Source: Myxococcota bacterium
Lineage (GTDB): Bacteria > Myxococcota_A > UBA796 > CAJQPC01
Direction of reading: 5' to 3'
DNA: 64,000 nt
Assembly (NCBI GenBank): GCA_036229005.1
Contig: JAZAMN010000018.1
Coordinates: forward strand, 2,377-66,376
Notes under the pieces: model-generated
Database searches by the model: none
What the model was told of the DNA's origin: nothing
The model's input: only the letters and a program-made list of their open reading frames with translations
Part shown: piece by piece, positions 7,804-16,247 of the stretch
Layout of the letters: every line of letters begins with the position of its first letter
Position numbering within the stretch: position 1 is the first letter of the stretch
Translations under genes and position numbers: made by a program

Positions 7804-8207
7804 AGAGCGTCTTCCAGCATGGTGGTGGCGCCCTCGACCCGCTCCTTGATGTTGTCCATGTTCGTGGTGGGCTTGTGGTCGATGGTGAACACGCCATCCG
7901 CGAAGGTGAAGCCGCGGTAGTTGCTCTTGCCGGAGTGGTTGCAGACCACCACCTTCTTGAGGCCCTCGTGCAGGGCCTCGCGGCCCATGTCGTCGATGGC
8001 GATGGCTTCGAGCACGCCGATCAGGGTCTCGAAGTAGACCTTGGTGAAGCCGTCCTCGTACAGATGGGCCTGGCCGTCGGTGGCGAGGCTGCCCCAGTCC
8101 ACCTCGACCTCCAAGGGCTTGCCATAGGCGGCGTCGATGCGCGCCTTGAGGGCCGGGTAGGTGTTGTCCTGGTACTGCTTGGCGGCGCGGCGTTCACGAA
8201 GGCCCAT
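7800..8207 (-). CDS. hypothetical protein
   Basis: ORF 7800..8285 trimmed to ATG 8207 (MGLRERRAAKQYQ...), preceded by AGGAGAG SD. 135 aa. Confidence 0.6.
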   Translation of the reverse strand: MGLRERRAAKQYQDNTYPALKARIDAAYGKPLEVEVDWGSLATDGQAHLYEDGFTKVYFETLIGVLEAIAIDDMGREALHEGLKKVVVCNHSGKSNYRGFTFADGVFTIDHKPTTNMDNIKERVEGATTMLEDAL

Positions 8208-8327
8208 GGGCTCTCTCCTGGCGGTTGGGAGGGTGCAGGTCCCCGCGGAGTGCGGTGCGGGGTTGCCTGCCCAGCCGGAACGCACAGAGGACGCCGGGGC
8301 TTACGGGCCCACAGTGCGTAGGTCTCC

Positions 8328-8726
8328 CTACAGCTCCTCAAGCATCTCGCGCAGGGCGGAGGCGGACATGGCGCCCACCTGCACGCGCTGCACCTGGCCC
8401 TGCCGGATGGCGACCACGGTGGGCGTGCCCATCAGCCCGAAGGCCTGGGCGGCCTCCATGTTCCGGGTGACGTCGACGCTGTGGACGCGGGTGTCGCCGG
8501 CGCCGAGCTCGCGGACCACGGGGTGCATGGCGCGGCAGGGGGCGCAGGTGGGCGAGTGGAAGAAGAGCAGGGCGTCGCCCTTGACGGCGTCTCCCAAGGG
8601 GCCCGGGATGTCGGGGACGGGCTCCCCCTGCAGAGCGGTGGCGCGGCGACGCATCCAGATCTGCAGGCCGATGAAGCCGCCGACAGCGAGCATGCAGAAG
8701 GCAAAGACGATGTTGTTCCAGTCCAT
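8328..8726 (-). CDS. membrane-anchored thioredoxin-family protein
   Basis: N-terminal TM helix (IVFAFCMLAVGGFIGLQIW) followed by a thioredoxin fold with CAPC active-site motif (FFHSPTCAPCRAM). Confidence 0.85.
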   Translation of the reverse strand: MDWNNIVFAFCMLAVGGFIGLQIWMRRRATALQGEPVPDIPGPLGDAVKGDALLFFHSPTCAPCRAMHPVVRELGAGDTRVHSVDVTRNMEAAQAFGLMGTPTVVAIRQGQVQRVQVGAMSASALREMLEEL

Positions 8727-8863
8727 GGGGACCTCAAGTCAAGTCAAGCAAGGCAAGGATGCATGCGCACCGGCGGGGTCGCGGAAAGGAGGGTGTGCTG
8801 ATCTGCCGCAGTTCCTCGCTGGCACAGGGGGTGTAGAGATCTGGCACTCGACTGGAGTTTGTT

Positions 8864-9415
8864 GTGTTGAAGACCAAGACTGCGATGTGGGCCCTGGGCC
8901 TCTCCCTCCTCCTCCCAGGCGCCGCCCTGGCCAAGCGAGGGGCCGAGGAGCCGCCGCCGATGAACCCGGATGACCACGAGCACCTGCAGGTGACGCAGGA
9001 CGTGAAGGTGGTGTTCCACGCGACCGAGGACGTCTGGAAGAAGGGCACGCCGCAGAGTCTGTGGTACATCCACAAGCTGGTGACCAAGGGATACCCCAAC
9101 ATGGGCGTGCCGGCGGAGGAGCTGGACTTCAAGCTGGTGGTGCACGACACGCCGGTCTACTGGTTCTTCACCGACGAGGCCTGGCCCAAGGCCAAGGGGC
9201 TCAACGGCGCCGCCCCGCTGGACCACAACCCCCACAAGGAGCTCATCCAGGAGCTGCTGGACGCCGGGGTGGACATCGAGGTCTGTGCGGTGACCCTCAA
9301 GTCCAAGGGCTACACCCAGGACATGCTGCTCCCGGGCATCAAGGTGACGCCGGCTGGTGTGCCGCGGGTGGTGGATCTGCAGCTCCAAGGGTATGCGTAT
9401 CTGAAGCTGCAGTAG
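8864..9415 (+). CDS. periplasmic DsrE/DsrF-like family protein
   Basis: Signal peptide (MWALGLSLLLPGAALA) and DsrE-like pattern: KVVFHAT..., LVVHD.PVYWF, VDIEVCAVTLKSKGY, PAGVPRVVDLQLQGYAYLK. Start is GTG 8864 or ATG 8885. Confidence 0.65.
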   Translation: MLKTKTAMWALGLSLLLPGAALAKRGAEEPPPMNPDDHEHLQVTQDVKVVFHATEDVWKKGTPQSLWYIHKLVTKGYPNMGVPAEELDFKLVVHDTPVYWFFTDEAWPKAKGLNGAAPLDHNPHKELIQELLDAGVDIEVCAVTLKSKGYTQDMLLPGIKVTPAGVPRVVDLQLQGYAYLKLQ

Positions 9416-9427
9416 GTCTGTCGCGGG

Positions 9428-10543
9428 CTACTGTGCTGGGTGGCAGTCGAAGCTGTAGAGCGTGCCGACGCCGCCAGCATGGCTGCTCTTGAGGTTGCGG
9501 TGGCTATCGTAGACAAACACGGTGCTGGTCTCCGTCTCGGCGGTCACACTCCACTGGACCAGCTCGAGGAGGTCCCCGGCGGCGTCGAAGGAGAACTCCT
9601 GCATGGACTGATGGTAGCCACCGGTGCCGTCGCTGAAGAGGTGATGCAGGACCGCGGGGAGCCCATCTGGGTCGAACACCACGTTTGTGTCTCGGAACAG
9701 GGTGCCGTCGTCCCACTCCGTGGTGCCGACCAACTGATCACCGATGTAGCGGTTCTCCCACAGAACGTAGGGGGTCTCGTAGCGCAGCAGCCTCTCGTCT
9801 TCCCAGGTGTAGACAGACTCCTGATCGCTGCTGCTGAGCAGCTTCCAGGTCGGTGTGTAGTGTCGGACGTCGTCGATCCAGCGCTCTCCTGTGCAGTACT
9901 CGTCCACGATCTGCGTCGCGCTGTATCGGGTATCGTCCCAGACAGTCAGCCTCTCGTAGCAATCGCTGAGCGTGTTCCCTTTGTACCGCGTCTCGCGGCC
10001 GAATTCGTCGTAGCTGTATTGGGTCGTGATGTTCCACTCGCCGTCTCGGTAGGTGGTCGACTCGCGCTGAGCGCCGCCTACACTCCAGACTGTGACCTGC
10101 TCCCAGGTTCTGTCCACCGTGAACACGCCTCCCAGGGGTCGGCTCTCGGACCGCCATTCTTGGTAGGTCGTTCCGAACTCCCCGTATTGGTACAGGGTCA
10201 CAGTCTGGTGCTGCAGGCCATCTGACTGGAGCAGCTCGCCCGAGAAGGTGAGGCGTCCGGCCGTGTCGTAGTCCTCCTGCTCCACGAGCGCTCCGTCGTC
10301 GGTCCAGCGACTGACTGTACGGATTCCTTCGGCGAGCAAGAGATGGTCGTCGAAGGGGTTGGTGTACAGGATGCCTCCGGCGCCGCGGTCGCCGCCTCGA
10401 TTGGCTGCCTCCACCGTGAACACACCCTCATCCACCCACCCATCGCCGTCGTCGTCCAACCCGTCACAGACCGCCTCTCGGCTCCCTGGAGAGCGCTCGG
10501 TGGTGGAGACGGGGGTGCAGGCGGACAGGAGCAGGAGCAGCAT
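9428..10543 (-). CDS. YD-repeat lipoprotein, array paralog 1 (last in array)
   Basis: 371 aa. MLLLLLSAC lipobox, CDGLDDDGDGWVDEG motif, YD-type repeats (YDTAGRL, YSYDEFGRE), C-terminal YSFDCHPAQ-stop. Confidence 0.8.
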   Translation of the reverse strand: MLLLLLSACTPVSTTERSPGSREAVCDGLDDDGDGWVDEGVFTVEAANRGGDRGAGGILYTNPFDDHLLLAEGIRTVSRWTDDGALVEQEDYDTAGRLTFSGELLQSDGLQHQTVTLYQYGEFGTTYQEWRSESRPLGGVFTVDRTWEQVTVWSVGGAQRESTTYRDGEWNITTQYSYDEFGRETRYKGNTLSDCYERLTVWDDTRYSATQIVDEYCTGERWIDDVRHYTPTWKLLSSSDQESVYTWEDERLLRYETPYVLWENRYIGDQLVGTTEWDDGTLFRDTNVVFDPDGLPAVLHHLFSDGTGGYHQSMQEFSFDAAGDLLELVQWSVTAETETSTVFVYDSHRNLKSSHAGGVGTLYSFDCHPAQ

Positions 10544-10582
10544 GAGGGGGTCTACTGTGGGGGGTGGCAGTCAAAGCTGTAG
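10415..10582. repeat. conserved 5' module plus junction of lipoprotein array, copy A (about 165 nt)
   Basis: Nearly identical by eye (one substitution and one 1-nt indel noticed) to 11551-11717. Covers the tail of the upstream paralog, stop, spacer, ATG, signal peptide and CDGLDDDGDGWVDEG coding region. Confidence 0.85.
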
Positions 10583-11679
10583 TGCGTCGTGACGCCGCCC
10601 GGCACGTAGCTGCTGCTGAGGTTGCGATGGCTCCCGGACATATACACAGTGCGACCCTGGTAGAGATCCTCGGAGTTGGACTGATCCCGGATCTCCGTCA
10701 ACTCGCCCGCCTCGTTGGTGACCAGGTCGCGCATGAGTTCGAGACTGGCATCCCCCGTGTAGTCCTCCCGAAAGACCTGTACCGAAGGGAGACCGTTGGC
10801 GCCGTACTTCAGGGTGGATTCGCGCACAAGCTCGCCTTCGAACAGCCTCTCGGTCCTTGACATCCGGCCTTCAGAGTAGCTGTTCACCAACAGATCCTTG
10901 GCCGATTCGTAGCGGGTCAGGAGGCCGTCCTCCCAGGTGAACACGAAGCTGCCGTCGGAGTCCGTGACAGGCTGCCCGTCCGTATTGTAGAACACAGTGC
11001 CGTGGACGGACCAGTCCTCGCTGCAGTCATCGTCCACGAGCGTGGTGACGCTGAGCGCGTCGTCGTCCCGTTCGTAGCGGTACTGCCTACACTCGCTGGG
11101 GCGCTCCAAGCGGTAGAACACGGTCTTGCCCTGCTCGTCGGTCTCCGTCGTCGCGGTCTGCTGCCAGACGCCGTTGTCGGTGACGATCTCGACCTTCCGG
11201 AGGCCCGCCTGCTCCCACCCGGTCTCCGTGGCTACGAGGCCATCCAGCTCGAACGCACCCCCAGCCTGGGACTGCACCTCGTGCCGGGTCTCCTGGTAGG
11301 TCTCCCCGTAGGGTCCGTATTCGATGGTGGTGAGGCGCTGCCAGGTCTCGGTGGCGTGGCCCTGCTCACTGCCGGTGAACACGATCCGGCCCAGGGTGTC
11401 GTACTCGGTCTCCAGGATGCTGGAGCCGTCGTCGGTCCAAGTGGTCACTCGGCGGATCCCCTCGGAGCGATGCTCCTGGGGGAAGACCACGTAGGAGAGG
11501 AATGCAGAGGTCCCGGCGGCTTGCCTCCCGTCCGGGAACACCAGGTCCATCGTGAACACACCCTCATCCACCCACCCATCGCCGTCGTCGTCCAACCCGT
11601 CACAGACCGCCTCTCGGCTCCCTGGAGAGCGCTCGATGGTGGAGACGGGGGTGCAGGCGGACAGGAGCAGGAGCAGCAT
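10552..11679 (-). CDS. YD-repeat lipoprotein, array paralog 2
   Basis: ORF 10552..11775 trimmed to ATG 11679 (MLLLLLSACTPVSTIERSPGSREAVCDGLDDDGDGWVDEG). YDTLGRIVF repeat; ends YSFDCHPPQ-stop. Confidence 0.8.
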   Translation of the reverse strand: MLLLLLSACTPVSTIERSPGSREAVCDGLDDDGDGWVDEGVFTMDLVFPDGRQAAGTSAFLSYVVFPQEHRSEGIRRVTTWTDDGSSILETEYDTLGRIVFTGSEQGHATETWQRLTTIEYGPYGETYQETRHEVQSQAGGAFELDGLVATETGWEQAGLRKVEIVTDNGVWQQTATTETDEQGKTVFYRLERPSECRQYRYERDDDALSVTTLVDDDCSEDWSVHGTVFYNTDGQPVTDSDGSFVFTWEDGLLTRYESAKDLLVNSYSEGRMSRTERLFEGELVRESTLKYGANGLPSVQVFREDYTGDASLELMRDLVTNEAGELTEIRDQSNSEDLYQGRTVYMSGSHRNLSSSYVPGGVTTHYSFDCHPPQ

Positions 11680-11717
11680 GAGGGGTCTACTGTGGGGGGT
11701 GGCAGTCGAAGCTGTAC
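11551..11717. repeat. conserved 5' module plus junction of lipoprotein array, copy B
   Basis: Direct repeat of 10415-10582, offset 1136 nt. Confidence 0.85.
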
Positions 11718-12826
11718 TCGATCCAACTGTCCCCGAACTGGCGCTCGATCCGCTCGATGTTGTGTTGGGAGTCACTCAGATACTCCGAGCGCCAGGACTC
11801 CGAGTCGTCCAGGTGGGAAGAGACCACCTGAGACAGACCACCCGCGGCGTTGTAGCCGAAGCGGGTAGACTTCTGCGAGCTGCCCTCCGAGGCGGTCCAC
11901 AGCAGGGGGAGGCCCCCTGCGGTGTATTCCATGGACGCCCAAGCGGTCCTCTCGCCCTGTTCGTAGGTGACACTCTGTGTGAGCAGCCCGCCCTGGTGTT
12001 CGTACTCCACCCGGTCGGCGCCGTCCCCCTGAACCACCAGGTCTGTACCCGCCCAGGTCAGGCTGGGGCTGTCGGGGTCGGTCCCGGTGGGCTGCCAGTT
12101 CGTGTCGTAATAGACTGTGCCTTGGTCGGCCCAGGTCCCGCCACAGTCCCGGTCAAAGAGCCGGGTACGGGTGAAGGCGCTGTCGTCCCACTCTGTGCGG
12201 GTCTGGCTGCAACTCCCGTCCCCGGTCTCGGTCACCAGGGTCTGGCGCCCCTGGGCGTCGTACTCGAACACCGCGTCGAAGGGGAGGCCGTGCTGCTCGC
12301 CGTGCACGCCCGCAAGCTGGCCAAGGTCGTTGTACTCCAGGGTCACATCCCACCACAGATCGGTCTGTGTCTGGCCGGTCTCCAGGTCCTCGGACGTGGT
12401 CTCGGAGCGCCACCAGGTTCTGCCGTATGGCCCCCAGGCGGCCTGCTGCAGGGTCTCGGTGCGCTCCTCGTCCCAGTCGCCGTGCCAGTTCAGGTCCCAC
12501 CAATGGATCTCCCGTCCCTGGCTGTCGTAGCGGCGCTCCCACTCCCGGAGCTTGGGCTCCAGGCCCTCGATGGCGGGGTAGGGCCGCTTGGTGCCGTAGA
12601 CCGTGGCCACGCCGGGCTGGATCTGCAGTGCGTCCTGGGGCTCAAAGCGCAGGGTCGGGAAGCTGCGCTCCAGATGGGTGGAGGTGGAGAGCTCAGGCTG
12701 GACGATGAGCACGCCTTCGTCCACCAAGCCGTCGGCGTCATCGTCCAGACCATCACAGCGGGCCTCGCGGGTACCGGAGGACTCTTGGGGTTGTGAGGCG
12801 CAGGCGAACAGAAGGAGCAGGAGCAT
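11687..12826 (-). CDS. YD-repeat lipoprotein, array paralog 3
   Basis: 379 aa. MLLLLLFAC lipobox, CDGLDDDADGLVDEG, RYDSQGREI / FEYDAQGRQ repeats; ends YSFDCHPPQ-stop. Confidence 0.8.
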   Translation of the reverse strand: MLLLLLFACASQPQESSGTREARCDGLDDDADGLVDEGVLIVQPELSTSTHLERSFPTLRFEPQDALQIQPGVATVYGTKRPYPAIEGLEPKLREWERRYDSQGREIHWWDLNWHGDWDEERTETLQQAAWGPYGRTWWRSETTSEDLETGQTQTDLWWDVTLEYNDLGQLAGVHGEQHGLPFDAVFEYDAQGRQTLVTETGDGSCSQTRTEWDDSAFTRTRLFDRDCGGTWADQGTVYYDTNWQPTGTDPDSPSLTWAGTDLVVQGDGADRVEYEHQGGLLTQSVTYEQGERTAWASMEYTAGGLPLLWTASEGSSQKSTRFGYNAAGGLSQVVSSHLDDSESWRSEYLSDSQHNIERIERQFGDSWIEYSFDCHPPQ

Positions 12827-12834
12827 GGTGAGGC

Positions 12835-13872
12835 CTACTGTGGGGGGTGGCAGTCGAAGGTGGTCGTGCTGGTCAGCCCGTCCTCGTCGATGGTCTGGGT
12901 GATGTTCAGGTGAGCGTCGCTGACGTAGCTTCGGAGGTGGGCCTCATCCGTGTCGAGTCGCCATGAGAGCTCGTCCACCAGACCGCCGACGGCGTTGAGG
13001 GTGTAGGTGGTGCGGGTCTCCTCTGTGGTCGTCCAGTATCTGTGTTCAACGAGTCGCCCCTGGTCGTCGTAGTCCGCCCATGCTTCGGCATAGGGCTCGT
13101 GCAGAAAGGTCTGCTCGCTGTGTACCAGGAGCCCCTGCTCGTAGGTGTTCCACTCGCTGTAGTTGGTGTCCGCGTAGCCCAGATACAGGTCCCCATCCCA
13201 CTGGTATACCCCATCGGGCTTGCCAAGGTCATACAGAGGGCGCCCGATCTCGTCGAACTGTACGCCTCCGTTCTCAACCCACTCGCCTGTGCAGCCCTCG
13301 TCCAGCCAGTCGCTGCGGGTGTAGGCGAGGTCATCCCAGTCGTATCTCTTGCTGTGGCAGGTCTCGTTCACCTGCTCGGTCCACCGGGTGTTGCGGCCCA
13401 GCGCATCGTACTCGGCCTCTCCGGTGCCGAGTTCTTCGGACAAGAGCTCGTCTTCTGAGTTCCAGTGTCGCCGCTCCCACTGTATGGTCTGCAGTCCGTA
13501 GTCACCCCAGGATGTCTCGACCTCGAGAACCCAGAGGGTGTCACCTGCGGGGGTCTCGAAGCGCTGCTGGACCAACCGGCCCTGGAGGTCGTAGACAAGC
13601 TCAGAGCTCCCCTCGAACTCACCGTCGCCGCTGACCGTAACCGTGGTGACTGTGTGAACACCGGGGAGCACCGAGCGCGACTCCAGATAGACGGTGTCGA
13701 TCCTCGTGATGGGCCAGCCAGAGAGGCTTGAGTCGAAGGGCCTGGCCTGGACGATCACCGCGCCCTCATCCACCCAGCCGTCGCCGTCGTCGTCCAAGCC
13801 ATCACACACGGACTCGCGCGTGCCCGGGGCGGTGTCATTGAAGGCGCTGCAAGCCAGAAGGAGCAGGAGCAT
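12835..13872 (-). CDS. YD-repeat lipoprotein, array paralog 4
   Basis: ORF 12835..14328 trimmed to ATG 13872 (MLLLLLACSAFNDTAPGTRESVCDGLDDDGDGWVDEG). YDLQGRL, YDALGRN, YDDQGRL repeats; ends TFDCHPPQ-stop. Confidence 0.8.
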   Translation of the reverse strand: MLLLLLACSAFNDTAPGTRESVCDGLDDDGDGWVDEGAVIVQARPFDSSLSGWPITRIDTVYLESRSVLPGVHTVTTVTVSGDGEFEGSSELVYDLQGRLVQQRFETPAGDTLWVLEVETSWGDYGLQTIQWERRHWNSEDELLSEELGTGEAEYDALGRNTRWTEQVNETCHSKRYDWDDLAYTRSDWLDEGCTGEWVENGGVQFDEIGRPLYDLGKPDGVYQWDGDLYLGYADTNYSEWNTYEQGLLVHSEQTFLHEPYAEAWADYDDQGRLVEHRYWTTTEETRTTYTLNAVGGLVDELSWRLDTDEAHLRSYVSDAHLNITQTIDEDGLTSTTTFDCHPPQ

Positions 13873-13880
13873 GGTGAGGC

Positions 13881-15014
13881 CTACTGTGGGGGGTGGCAGT
13901 CGAAGCTGTATTCGTTGCGGGTCTGGTCCCCTTCGCGGACCTCTGAGATGTTGAAGGTGTTGTCGCTCAGGTAGCTGACCTGCGTGGTGCTGTTGTCCTG
14001 TTCGCTCCACTCGGAGGACAGCGTGAGTCCTCCGGAGCTGTTGAACTCGTATTCGGTGAGCGTGGTGTAGCCTTGCGAGTCCTTGGCCTCCAGGTAGTAA
14101 GGGACGCCCTCGTCGTTGTAGGCGGCCCAGTGCTCTCCGGCGTAGTCGGAGAGGAAGGTGGCGATGGTGTGTACGAGCCGGCCGTCTCTGTACTCGAACT
14201 CCAGGGTGTCGTTCGTTGTGAATGCGCCGGAGAGCTTGCTGTCGTCCCACTCCAGAGTCAGGTCGCCGTCCTGTTCGTGCAAGGGGAACCAGAGGGCGTC
14301 GTACTGCACCACCCGGTCCTCCACCCACTGACCTGTGCAGCCCTGGTCCACCCAGTCACTGCGGGTGTAGGCGAGGTCATCCCAGTCGCTCCGCCACTGG
14401 CTACAGAGGGACCCGTTCCGCTCTGTGGTGAGGACCAGGCGCCCCTGGGCGTCGTATTCGTAGTCGGTGTCGACCGTCGTGCCGGAGCTGCTCTCGCTGT
14501 GTTCGGCGACCACCAGGCCGTCGCCGTCGTACTCGGTGTCCAGGGTGGAGACGGTCTCGTCCTGCAGCACCCCTTCCGCAGACCACTGCTGGAAGCCCGA
14601 CTCTTGGTGCTCCGGCCCGTGGGGGCCCCACACAGTCTGTTCGTAGTAGACCATCCGGCCGCCGTCTAGGGCGCTCGGCGAGCGCTCCAACCAGGAGCCG
14701 ATCAAGCGCCCCTGGGGGTCGTAGCGGAACCCGAAGGTAGCCACGTTGGTGTCTGACGAGTCAGGGTCCTGGGATTGGATCGTCACAGTCTGTACCCCGG
14801 GCAGCAGATCGAGGACCACCTGGGGCCCGGGATCCAGCACAGCCTGTGTCGTCAGGCCCTCAAAGTCCTGAACAGACAGCTCGGGGACCGCCAGGACTGC
14901 GCCCTCGTCTACGAAGCCGTCGGCGTCATCGTCCAGGCCATCGCAGACCTGCTCCCGCGAGCCGGGGCTTTGGCCTTCGGTGGGCGTCGAGCAGGCCAAC
15001 AGTAGCCACCACAT
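13881..15014 (-). CDS. YD-repeat lipoprotein, array paralog 5 (first in array)
   Basis: ORF 13881..15062 trimmed to ATG 15014 (MWWLLLACSTPTEGQSPGSREQVCDGLDDDADGFVDEG). YDPQGRL, YEYDAQGRL repeats; ends YSFDCHPPQ-stop. Confidence 0.8.
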   Translation of the reverse strand: MWWLLLACSTPTEGQSPGSREQVCDGLDDDADGFVDEGAVLAVPELSVQDFEGLTTQAVLDPGPQVVLDLLPGVQTVTIQSQDPDSSDTNVATFGFRYDPQGRLIGSWLERSPSALDGGRMVYYEQTVWGPHGPEHQESGFQQWSAEGVLQDETVSTLDTEYDGDGLVVAEHSESSSGTTVDTDYEYDAQGRLVLTTERNGSLCSQWRSDWDDLAYTRSDWVDQGCTGQWVEDRVVQYDALWFPLHEQDGDLTLEWDDSKLSGAFTTNDTLEFEYRDGRLVHTIATFLSDYAGEHWAAYNDEGVPYYLEAKDSQGYTTLTEYEFNSSGGLTLSSEWSEQDNSTTQVSYLSDNTFNISEVREGDQTRNEYSFDCHPPQ

Positions 15015-15077: not shown

Positions 15078-16247
15078 TCAGTCCTTGGCCCTTCGTCCCA
15101 GCCGCCGCTGTTTGCGCTCACTGCTGCGGGCCTCGCGGCGCTCGCTGCGGGTGTCGCGGCGGTCCTGGCGCACATCGCCCCAGGCCTCGAAACGGTCGGC
15201 CAGCTTGGGATCGGCGAGCTCGGCGTCGACCAGGGCGGTGGGGTCCACGATGTCCTGGCCCTCGGGGACCTGGGCGGTGCCCTCTTCGACCAGGTGGTAG
15301 TCCAGGCGCACGGGCTCGCCACGGCGCTCGATGTCGACCCAGAGGACCTTGCGGTTGCGCAGGGCCAGGAAGGCGGTGACGGCCTCGGAGTAGGACTGGA
15401 TCTCCCGGCCGTTGACGGCCTGGATGATGTCGCCGCTGCGGAAGCCGGCCTGATCCAGCAAGGTGCCGCAGCGGATGCGGCCGACCTTGAAGCCGCGGCG
15501 CTCGCCCTGGTCGTCCTTGGCCCACCAGGTGGGGGCCAGGTCCTCGGCCTCCTTGGGGTGGGCGGCGTAGTGGGCGATGACCTGGTCTTCGATGCGGTAG
15601 GCGGTCTCGGAGACGGCGAAGATGTCCGCGCGCTCCGGCTCGCAGTTCTGGTGGGTGACCTTGGGGGCCTTGCGGGGGGCGCGGGTGCGGCGCACATGCT
15701 CGGTGTTGTCGCCGCCCTCGACCCCAGCGGGGCTGCCGGCCACGGTGCTGGAGGGGCCGCGGGCCAAGGCCTCGAGCTGGAGGCCGTTGAGCTCCCCGAG
15801 CGCAGGCTTGTCGGCGCCAGGCGGAGGCTCCAGGTCGTCGTCGGCGGTCGGCGCCAGGGTGTCCTCGCCGATGGGATCGGGCTCCGGGGTGTCCTGGGGC
15901 TCGGGATCCGGGGGGGTGGGGTCGGATTCCGGTGGGCTGGGATCCTCCTCCACCTCCTGAACCGGGTTGTCCTGCTCCAAGGGGTCGGGCTCCAGGGTGA
16001 GCTCGAGGTGCATGGGCTGGTAGACGGCGACGCGCTCGACGGGGGCGCTGATCTCCAGGCCTTCGAGCTCGGGGACGGGGGTGAGCCAGCCAAGCTGCCA
16101 GGGGCCCACGAAGCCAGCGCCGACGATGGCGAGGCTGAGGGCAGCGGCGATGGGGCGGGGCAGGGACACCGGGTCTCCGGGGGGTTGGGCGCCTGTGGGA
16201 CGCGCCTGCACGCTCTGATATTCGGCCGGCCGAGGGCGGGTAAGCAA
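15078..16247 (-). CDS. membrane-anchored PDZ-domain protein, GspC-like
   Basis: N-terminal TM (IAAALSLAIVGAGFV), Pro/Asp/Glu-rich linker, and a C-terminal segment resembling the GspC HR plus PDZ region (FKVGRIRCGTLLDQAGFRSGDIIQAVNGREI). Basic C-terminal tail. No other T2SS genes in the window. Confidence 0.65.
   Translation of the reverse strand: MLTRPRPAEYQSVQARPTGAQPPGDPVSLPRPIAAALSLAIVGAGFVGPWQLGWLTPVPELEGLEISAPVERVAVYQPMHLELTLEPDPLEQDNPVQEVEEDPSPPESDPTPPDPEPQDTPEPDPIGEDTLAPTADDDLEPPPGADKPALGELNGLQLEALARGPSSTVAGSPAGVEGGDNTEHVRRTRAPRKAPKVTHQNCEPERADIFAVSETAYRIEDQVIAHYAAHPKEAEDLAPTWWAKDDQGERRGFKVGRIRCGTLLDQAGFRSGDIIQAVNGREIQSYSEAVTAFLALRNRKVLWVDIERRGEPVRLDYHLVEEGTAQVPEGQDIVDPTALVDAELADPKLADRFEAWGDVRQDRRDTRSERREARSSERKQRRLGRRAKD

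Follow-up and report, generated by a model that had tools for sequence, protein, structure and literature searches.

A five-gene lipoprotein array

We studied a window of 64,000 nucleotides (nt) from contig JAZAMN010000018.1 of a Myxococcota bacterium (GenBank assembly GCA_036229005.1). The source genome is a marine metagenome-assembled genome (MAG) of 74 contigs and 6.4 Mb, with a G+C content of about 70%. Within the window lies an array of five tandem minus-strand genes, which we call P1 to P5, encoding lipoproteins with YD repeats. Positions below are those of the window, and protein lengths are given in amino acids (aa).

9428-10543, minus strand: P1, a 371-aa YD-repeat lipoprotein and the last gene of the array; open reading frame (ORF) with lipobox LLSAC, the CDGLDDDGDGWVDEG motif and the tail FDCHPAQ followed by TAG
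10552-11679, minus strand: P2, a 375-aa paralog and the sister of P1 (41% aa identity)
11687-12826, minus strand: P3, a 379-aa paralog with an RHS_repeat match above the cut-off
12835-13872, minus strand: P4, a 345-aa paralog whose alleles are mosaic in two strains
13881-15014, minus strand: P5, a 377-aa paralog and the first gene of the array; a sixth paralog type stands here in another strain

All five genes are complete ORFs with an ATG start, a lipobox and a TAG stop. The spacers between consecutive genes are 7 to 8 nt long, the junctions have no Shine-Dalgarno sequences, and the genes appear to be co-transcribed. The encoded proteins share a common layout. A lipoprotein signal peptide with its lipobox is followed by an Asp-rich motif (CDGLDDDxDGxVDEG), the part of the coding sequence that is best conserved across the family, then by a YD/RHS body of about 300 residues, and finally by FDCHP(P/A)Q before the TAG. 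In pairwise comparisons the five showed 27 to 41% protein identity and 45 to 57% nucleotide identity, with a synonymous divergence (dS) of about 1 or more; to judge from this saturation they are old paralogs.

An earlier note, made from the sequence alone, had picked out three near-identities inside these diverged genes: a tract of about 165 nt shared by P1 and P2, a 45-nt junction shared by P4 and P5, and an internal 57-nt patch in the same two genes. It had attributed them to ongoing gene conversion or unequal crossing-over and had held that purifying selection on the protein would not produce them. All three identities are present, and all are far beyond chance given the background identity of about 50%. 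Only the P1/P2 tract, though, exceeds what protein constraint and codon bias together produce.

The tract shared by P1 and P2

The two copies of the tract each straddle a gene boundary.

10410-10582, minus strand: proposed conversion tract, copy at the P2 tail, spacer and P1 start; strictly identical core 10415-10543 plus spacer and tail (repeat family D2, 99%)
11546-11717, minus strand: proposed conversion tract, copy at the P3 tail, spacer and P2 start

Positions 10415-10582 (168 nt) and 11551-11717 (167 nt) differ by two substitutions and by a 1-nt indel in the C run of the spacer, and blastn aligned the copies at 98.2% over 167 nt. The earlier note had the indel but counted only one substitution. 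Each copy takes in the end of the invariant C-terminal tail, the stop codon, the 7- to 8-nt spacer, the start codon, the signal peptide and the CDGLDDDGDGWVDEG motif. In sliding windows, nucleotide identity between P1 and P2 was 98 to 100% over codons 1 to 44 and then fell to 40 to 60% within a few bases. A maximum chi-square search placed the breakpoint after nt 134 of the coding sequence (CDS) (Fisher P = 1.4e-33; permutation p <= 0.0005), with 2 of 134 sites differing to its left and 487 of 973 to its right. The downstream end of the tract falls after CDS nt 129-134.

Synonymous sites told the same story. Nei-Gojobori dS between P1 and P2 was 0 inside the tract (0 of 33.2 sites) and 0.99 outside it, whereas the other paralog pairs had dS values of 0.86 to 2.3 over the same columns (132 coding nt). 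Where P1 and P2 share a degenerate amino acid, the same codon was used at 40 of 40 positions in the tract versus 61 of 103 (59%) elsewhere; concordance in the tract columns was 32 to 64% for the other pairs. The longest same-codon run between P1 and P2 was likewise extreme (permutation p < 5e-5). As a null for codon bias we used the codon usage of 2,412 long ORFs (G+C at third codon positions [GC3], 0.93) and, separately, that of the array itself, and the probability of 40 identical codons in 40 came to between 3e-11 and 4e-14. The tract is therefore a real recombination tract, and for it the note was right both in seeing a conversion-like pattern and in setting protein-level purifying selection aside. 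The comparison of synonymous divergence inside and outside the tract, which the note had itself proposed as a check, leaves conversion standing. No further copy or external donor of the tract above 78% identity was found outside the array by blastn and tblastn across the whole 6.4-Mb genome.

We considered whether purifying selection at the nucleotide level, acting on an RNA structure or a translational-coupling element, could have kept the tract identical without recombination. The junctions are only 7 to 8 nt long and have no Shine-Dalgarno sequence, and the rare codon CCA and the stop TAG recur in all six paralog types, so some constraint at the gene boundary is likely. However, P3, P4 and P5 diverge to dS 0.86 to 2.3 over the same 132 coding nt, the spacers come in two types, one of which varies between strains, and a tandem pair of family members in another genome (L015, described below) has no such identity. 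Because these sites are free to vary in P3, P4 and P5, and because the L015 pair lacks the identity, selection on this stretch at the protein, RNA or DNA level would not explain why P1 and P2 match, and we hold this explanation to be very improbable.

The tract also had to be distinguished from a collapsed or wrongly duplicated repeat, a possibility that the note had raised and one that a 74-contig MAG and a tract about as long as one short read might seem to invite. An independent ENA contig from a second strain (L011) has this five-gene array too, with matching surroundings and 98 to 99% identity over P1 to P3, and its P1 and P2 contain the same tract, two substitutions apart. Logan unitigs from three studies (X1, X2 and X4) agree in breaking off at the tract, which is how a de Bruijn graph has to behave where a repeat is genuine; the low-coverage runs X5, X6, X8 and X9 added nothing on the tract. 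A single 156-nt unitig of run X4, covering positions 11552-11707, had a depth of 321, about twice that of its neighbors (152 to 186), and represents two identical copies. Since the tract recurs in L011 and the X4 unitig has double depth, it is not an assembly artifact; both copies moreover carry private differences, and the chance that assembly created the pattern is practically negligible.

Comparison of the two strains also bears on the age of the tract. Among the four sequences (P1 and P2 of the window strain and of L011), the differences inside the coding tract are each confined to a single copy. Window P1 has ACC for ATC, and also an extra C in the spacer; L011 P2 has one C-to-G change, and L011 P1 has one synonymous change. 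Two further differences, TTT/TTC in the tail and G/A at the 3' edge, separate the two positions in the window strain and in L011 alike and mark the limits of the tract. P1 and P2 differ within the tract by one substitution and one indel in the window strain and by two substitutions in L011, while the orthologs differ by one or two. No strain-specific change shared by both paralogs was seen in the tract of either strain. The paralogs are thus no closer to each other than the orthologs are, which is not the pattern of concerted evolution, and one old event is therefore enough. The tract is older than the split of the sampled populations, being already present in every one of them, and a single event shortly before that split fits the data. 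The word "ongoing" in the earlier note is not supported. Nor did the 47 strain differences in P1 to P3 contain signatures of micro-conversion, as none of them gave a consistent match to any paralog.

One cluster of differences lies in the body of P2. Positions 11100-11109 of the window contain four substitutions in 10 nt relative to three other populations (X2, X3, X4 and L011); background divergence is about 1.4%. The cluster matches no other paralog and may be a multinucleotide mutation or a micro-import.

The P1/P2 tract very probably arose in one short, nonreciprocal homologous recombination (gene conversion) event. About 165 nt would have been copied from one gene boundary onto the neighboring boundary, so that two wholly different bodies, those of P1 and P2, came to share one 5' end. 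On the upstream side the exchange was probably anchored in the 21 to 24 nt of tail common to all copies. Downstream, the tract stops just beyond the Asp-rich motif. This motif is 68 to 83% nucleotide identical among the paralogs and may have served as the other anchor; tail and motif seem to be the only plausible stretches of homology for the purpose. A RecA-type mechanism would presumably have been responsible, and each copy would have gathered zero to two private changes since.

Several points weigh against this account. Donor and recipient are indistinguishable, so the direction of copying is unrecoverable. The upstream end of the tract is hidden within the tail, which does not vary from copy to copy, and at the junctions this invariance means that something besides a single pairwise conversion also acts. 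Neither the lipoprotein family nor an orthologous array was present in the 40 GTDB relatives examined, so there is no outgroup with which to date or polarize the event; no outgroup population lacking the tract was found, and the event is not directly bracketed. The read-level evidence for the tract consists of unitigs only. Finally, two successive unequal crossovers, a duplication and then a deletion, would give the same pattern.

Unequal crossing-over, which the earlier note had offered beside conversion, is excluded in the form of a single crossover as the source of a shared 5' end on different bodies, because a single crossover would have duplicated or deleted a body. Two steps could work. 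A misaligned crossover in the N-terminal region would create a hybrid gene, in which the N-terminus of one unit is joined to the body of the other, and a six-gene array, from which one parent unit would later be deleted. The tandem units, with periods of 1046 to 1153 nt and identical junctions of 24 to 51 nt, offer a substrate for such exchanges, and tandem duplication has clearly enlarged the family, which has two copies in relatives and five in this array. Yet one event suffices for conversion and two are needed for this route, so that parsimony favors conversion. Array length did not vary in the data, both assembled strains (the window strain and L011, the only other one assembled across the array) having exactly five genes. 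No true chimeric joint was seen in the Logan contigs either, the apparent joints being accounted for by a 51-nt repeat and a divergent P5 allele. We therefore consider the two-step route improbable.

Gene junctions and the P4/P5 patch

The other two identities noted in the array involve P4 and P5.

12809-12859, minus strand: type B junction, copy 1, comprising the P4 tail, TAG, the spacer GCCTCACC and ATG CTC CTG CTC CTT CTG of P3
13855-13905, minus strand: type B junction, copy 2, comprising the P5 tail, TAG, the spacer and the P4 start
13286-13342, minus strand: P4 copy of the 57-nt patch, which encodes the Cys-Cys loop WDDLAYTRSDWLDEGCTGEW
14332-14388, minus strand: P5 copy of the 57-nt patch

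The junction is longer than the 45 nt first reported for it. Positions 12811-12859 and 13857-13905 are identical at 49 of 49 nt, and the overlap of Logan contigs extends the identity to 51 nt. Boundaries in the array fall into two types. Type A, before P1 and P2, has the spacer ACCCC(C)TC and then ATG CTG CTC CTG; type B, before P3 and P4, has the spacer GCCTCACC and then ATG CTC CTG CTC CTT CTG. In L011 the type B spacer before P4 is GCTCCACC, a 2-nt difference. Given two discrete types and a strain variant, the spacer does not seem to be tightly constrained, and identity within a type suggests shared recent descent by way of a short tract. The type B identity takes in the 8-nt spacer and five Leu codons, including the rare CTT. 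Of the junction, 24 nt belong to the universally invariant tail, which leaves only about 25 informative nt. The type B junction is plausibly a second, shorter tract of the same process, to which extent the conversion reading of the note may hold here as well, but a tract and constraint on the junction cannot be told apart here.

The tails stand at positions 9428-9451, 10552-10575, 11687-11710, 12835-12858 and 13881-13904. Five of the six paralog types end identically (TTY GAC TGC CAC CCC CCA CAG TAG), and P1 ends CCA GCA CAG TAG. All six tails use CCA, which makes up 3.8% of the Pro codons in the genome, and the stop TAG, which makes up 21% of stops, and their invariance exceeds what codon bias would give. 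Candidate explanations are a nucleotide-level boundary function, for example Shine-Dalgarno-less translational coupling, repeated homogenization at the boundary, and use of the tail as a recombination anchor.

In run X1 the P4 unit (window 12809-13854) was represented by a 1,069-nt, circularly permuted unitig ("goes back 1046"). This is a graph artifact and not a DNA circle or a duplication, because the identical 51-nt junctions on either side exceed the k-mer length. Such loops and the apparent joints in the Logan contigs are not array-length variants: either the graph loops at the 51-nt repeat, or the divergent P5 allele is matched weakly. Breaks and loops of short-read graphs at this locus are accounted for by the 165-nt and 51-nt repeats, a point that matters for its annotation and for metagenome binning.

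The 57-nt patch differs at three positions between P4 and P5, as the note had estimated. It encodes the loop between Cys195 and Cys217 (P1 numbering); both cysteines are invariant in all ten sequences, and the loop holds an invariant WDD. Between P4 and P5, dS was 0.29 in the patch and 1.19 outside it. Synonymous concordance was 13 of 16, for which the codon-bias null gave pointwise, uncorrected P values of 0.02 to 0.07. In a whole-gene scan of P4 and P5 the patch was not the top window, and the longest same-codon run was the C-terminal tail. As a conversion tract the patch is thus not demonstrable, and the argument of the note that protein-level selection would be insufficient does not carry over to it.

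Alleles from the two strains point the same way, the patch standing out as conserved in every comparison inside the P4/P5 group. Within the patch, window P4 and L011 P4 are 93 to 97% identical (flanks, 56 to 75%), window P4 and window P5 are 92% identical, L011 P4 and window P5 are 90% identical, and either P4 allele is 77 to 80% identical to the sixth paralog type. Because both P4 alleles are about equally near P5, the similarity of the patch predates their deep split. The best reading is that of a putatively constrained disulfide-loop motif written in strongly preferred codons, and at most the patch is a very old conversion. Another candidate tract, between the P4 of L011 and the sixth-type gene of the same strain (91%, alignment columns 182-207), was rejected as the universal EYDAQGR YD core in preferred codons.

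Strain variation, relatives and significance

Divergence between the window and L011 climbs along the array, with dS values of 0.012 for P1, 0.023 for P2, 0.055 for P3, 0.30 for P4 and about 1.0 for P5. At P5, L011 has exchanged the gene body (window 13916-15008) for the sixth paralog type, which encodes 384 aa and has about 56% nucleotide identity to P5 and a dS of about 1. The flanks of the exchanged segment match perfectly, up to ATGTGG (codon 3 on) at one end and from ACGAATACAGCTTCGACTGCCACCCCCCACAGTAG, 35 nt before the end of the stop codon, at the other. P4 (12835-13872) is a block mosaic between the two strains. Identity along the gene runs 92 to 98%, 58 to 74%, 92 to 96%, 70 to 88% and 98 to 100%, and dS by segment is 0.12, 0.59, 0.30, 0.42 and 0.18. 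Because synonymous divergence is also high, the diverged P4 blocks read as imports from deep alleles and not simply as the result of positive selection. No donor of these blocks was found among all array members of both strains.

These exchanges bear on a further explanation of the P1/P2 tract, in which P1 and P2 would be a recent duplication whose one body was overwritten by a deeply diverged allele from another strain, leaving the 165 nt as a remnant. A whole-body swap of exactly this kind separates the strains at P5, and the P4 alleles are mosaic. The P5 swap breaks at the start codon, however, and not past the Asp-rich motif. The P1 and P2 bodies are closest to each other, in a clade confined to this lineage, and neither a third copy nor an external donor was found among 1.84 billion representative proteins. 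Body replacement would also have been a longer and less parsimonious event than the conversion that we favor, and we consider it quite improbable.

The two P5 alleles probably coexist in one sample. In run X2 the unitig of the window-type P5 had a depth of 43, while neighboring array unitigs had depths of about 1,200 to 1,360, and a 1,174-nt unitig at a depth of 1,290 fits the other P5 allele. The array might be a locus of diversity at the population level, with invariant boundaries serving as portable recombination anchors for a nonprogrammed cassette exchange of surface lipoproteins in a free-living marine bacterium, but we put this forward as a tentative view with the odds against it. The tail of about 33 nt with its CCA and TAG, the spacer and the Leu-rich start of the signal peptide would be the anchors. 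They would permit core swaps such as that at P5, mosaics such as those at P4, and short boundary conversions such as those at P1/P2 and the type B junctions.

The array stands next to a gene that also helps to place its relatives.

15078-16247, minus strand: gene for a PDZ (GspC-like) protein, outside the repeat, 63 nt before P5 on the same strand

Its product matched the NCBIfam model GspC_delta at E = 1.3e-22, yet under the cut-off, and the gene is syntenic in a relative. A profile search of the 1.84 billion representative proteins returned only six clusters at E < 1e-30, which are the five paralogs and the sixth type from another strain. A word search of 5.8 billion proteins and scans of metagenome and genome contigs added only distant relatives to the six paralog types of this species. 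These relatives (about 28% identity) occur in other marine MAGs as two-gene arrays, likewise downstream of a gene for a GspC-like PDZ protein. In one of them, L015 (an uncultured proteobacterium MAG; CAJXRZ010000070.1, 4832-7125), two tandem members of 388 and 376 aa overlap at ATGA, directly after the homologous PDZ/GspC-like gene. This pair showed no N-terminal homogenization, its members being 61 to 75% identical at the nucleotide level, with synonymous differences. In a maximum-likelihood tree the six paralog types formed one clade (100/100), with P1 and P2 as sisters (90/93) on long branches. The five-gene array, with only two-copy arrays in relatives and with its types in a single clade, is therefore a lineage-specific expansion.

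The array proteins resemble known families in part. For PF05593 the scores were 26.2 bits for P3 and 27.9 bits for P5 (cut-off, 22), with P1 and P4 below the cut-off and P2 without a match, and P5 scored 23.5 bits for TIGR01643 (cut-off, 15.8). The Asp-rich motif reached 13 to 20 bits for the MopE-type metal-binding family PF11617, short of the Pfam cut-off of 27, and we treat the likeness as resemblance only. No extra domains were detected in the array proteins by Pfam or NCBIfam. An AlphaFold model of P1 (mean predicted local distance difference test score [pLDDT], 71.5; core, >90) was all beta, with about 24 beta-hairpin strands. Its best Foldseek matches were Rhs/teneurin YD shells (E of about 1e-8), and the TM-scores to these shells of about 1000 aa were low (0.1 to 0.4) because the array protein is much shorter. 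The array is also compositionally distinct. G+C is 64 to 66% over window positions 8001-14000 (the array and its immediate neighbors), versus 69 to 76% over most of the window, and the GC3 of the array is 0.86 versus 0.93 genome-wide, so codon bias is weaker in the array genes.

Bacterial paralogs are well known to undergo ectopic gene conversion, with examples that include the tuf genes, rRNA operons, and the PE/PPE and antigen loci of Mycobacterium tuberculosis (PMC6053082, PMC8022953, PMC13061034, PMC12046097). The P1/P2 tract is like these conversions in being short, near-identical and sharp-edged, in lying in diverged tandem genes of the same orientation, and in having its synonymous divergence collapsed inside. 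It is unlike them in two respects: the sequences flanking the tract in the array are saturated (dS of about 1, 41% aa identity), with homology only in the 21- to 24-nt tail and the Asp-rich motif, and the array shows no sign of recurrent homogenization, its paralogs being no closer than the orthologs.

Two other kinds of system invite comparison. Cassette-based antigenic variation is known from Neisseria pilE/pilS, Borrelia vlsE and Anaplasma msp2. The array is like such systems in encoding a surface lipoprotein family with conserved ends and variable cores, and in its P4 mosaics and the P5 core swap between co-occurring strains. Unlike them, it lacks an expression site accompanied by silent, truncated cassettes. 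Each of the five genes is complete, and the genome holds no further copies of the family, so that a programmed cassette system is not indicated. The diverged P4 segments match no array member, and their donors would therefore be other alleles in the population and not in-genome cassettes. Rhs loci, which combine conserved cores with variable tips, are a classic case of recombination hot spots. The array proteins share with Rhs/YD-repeat proteins (PF05593, TIGR01643; structures 8qja, 8qjc and 7pq5) the YD-repeat motifs and a beta-hairpin sheet fold. At 345 to 379 aa, however, they are too short for a closed shell, and they have no C-terminal toxin, cleavage motifs or VgrG/PAAR context, being instead lipoproteins with an N-terminal MopE-like motif. 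They belong with the Rhs/YD-repeat proteins by repeat thresholds but do not have the closed shell with toxin and autoproteolysis.

The P1/P2 tract is thus a new example of a known and ordinary process, here in an orphan lipoprotein family, and it indicates that conversion can act between paralogs with saturated bodies by way of a short conserved tail and motif. The most interesting leads are the strain-variable first gene of the array and its invariant boundaries. This otherwise orphan surface-lipoprotein array is prone to recombination and varies between strains of a natural marine population. If two deep P5 alleles do co-occur, the cell surface might be under diversifying or balancing selection, for example from phage, predation or kin recognition.

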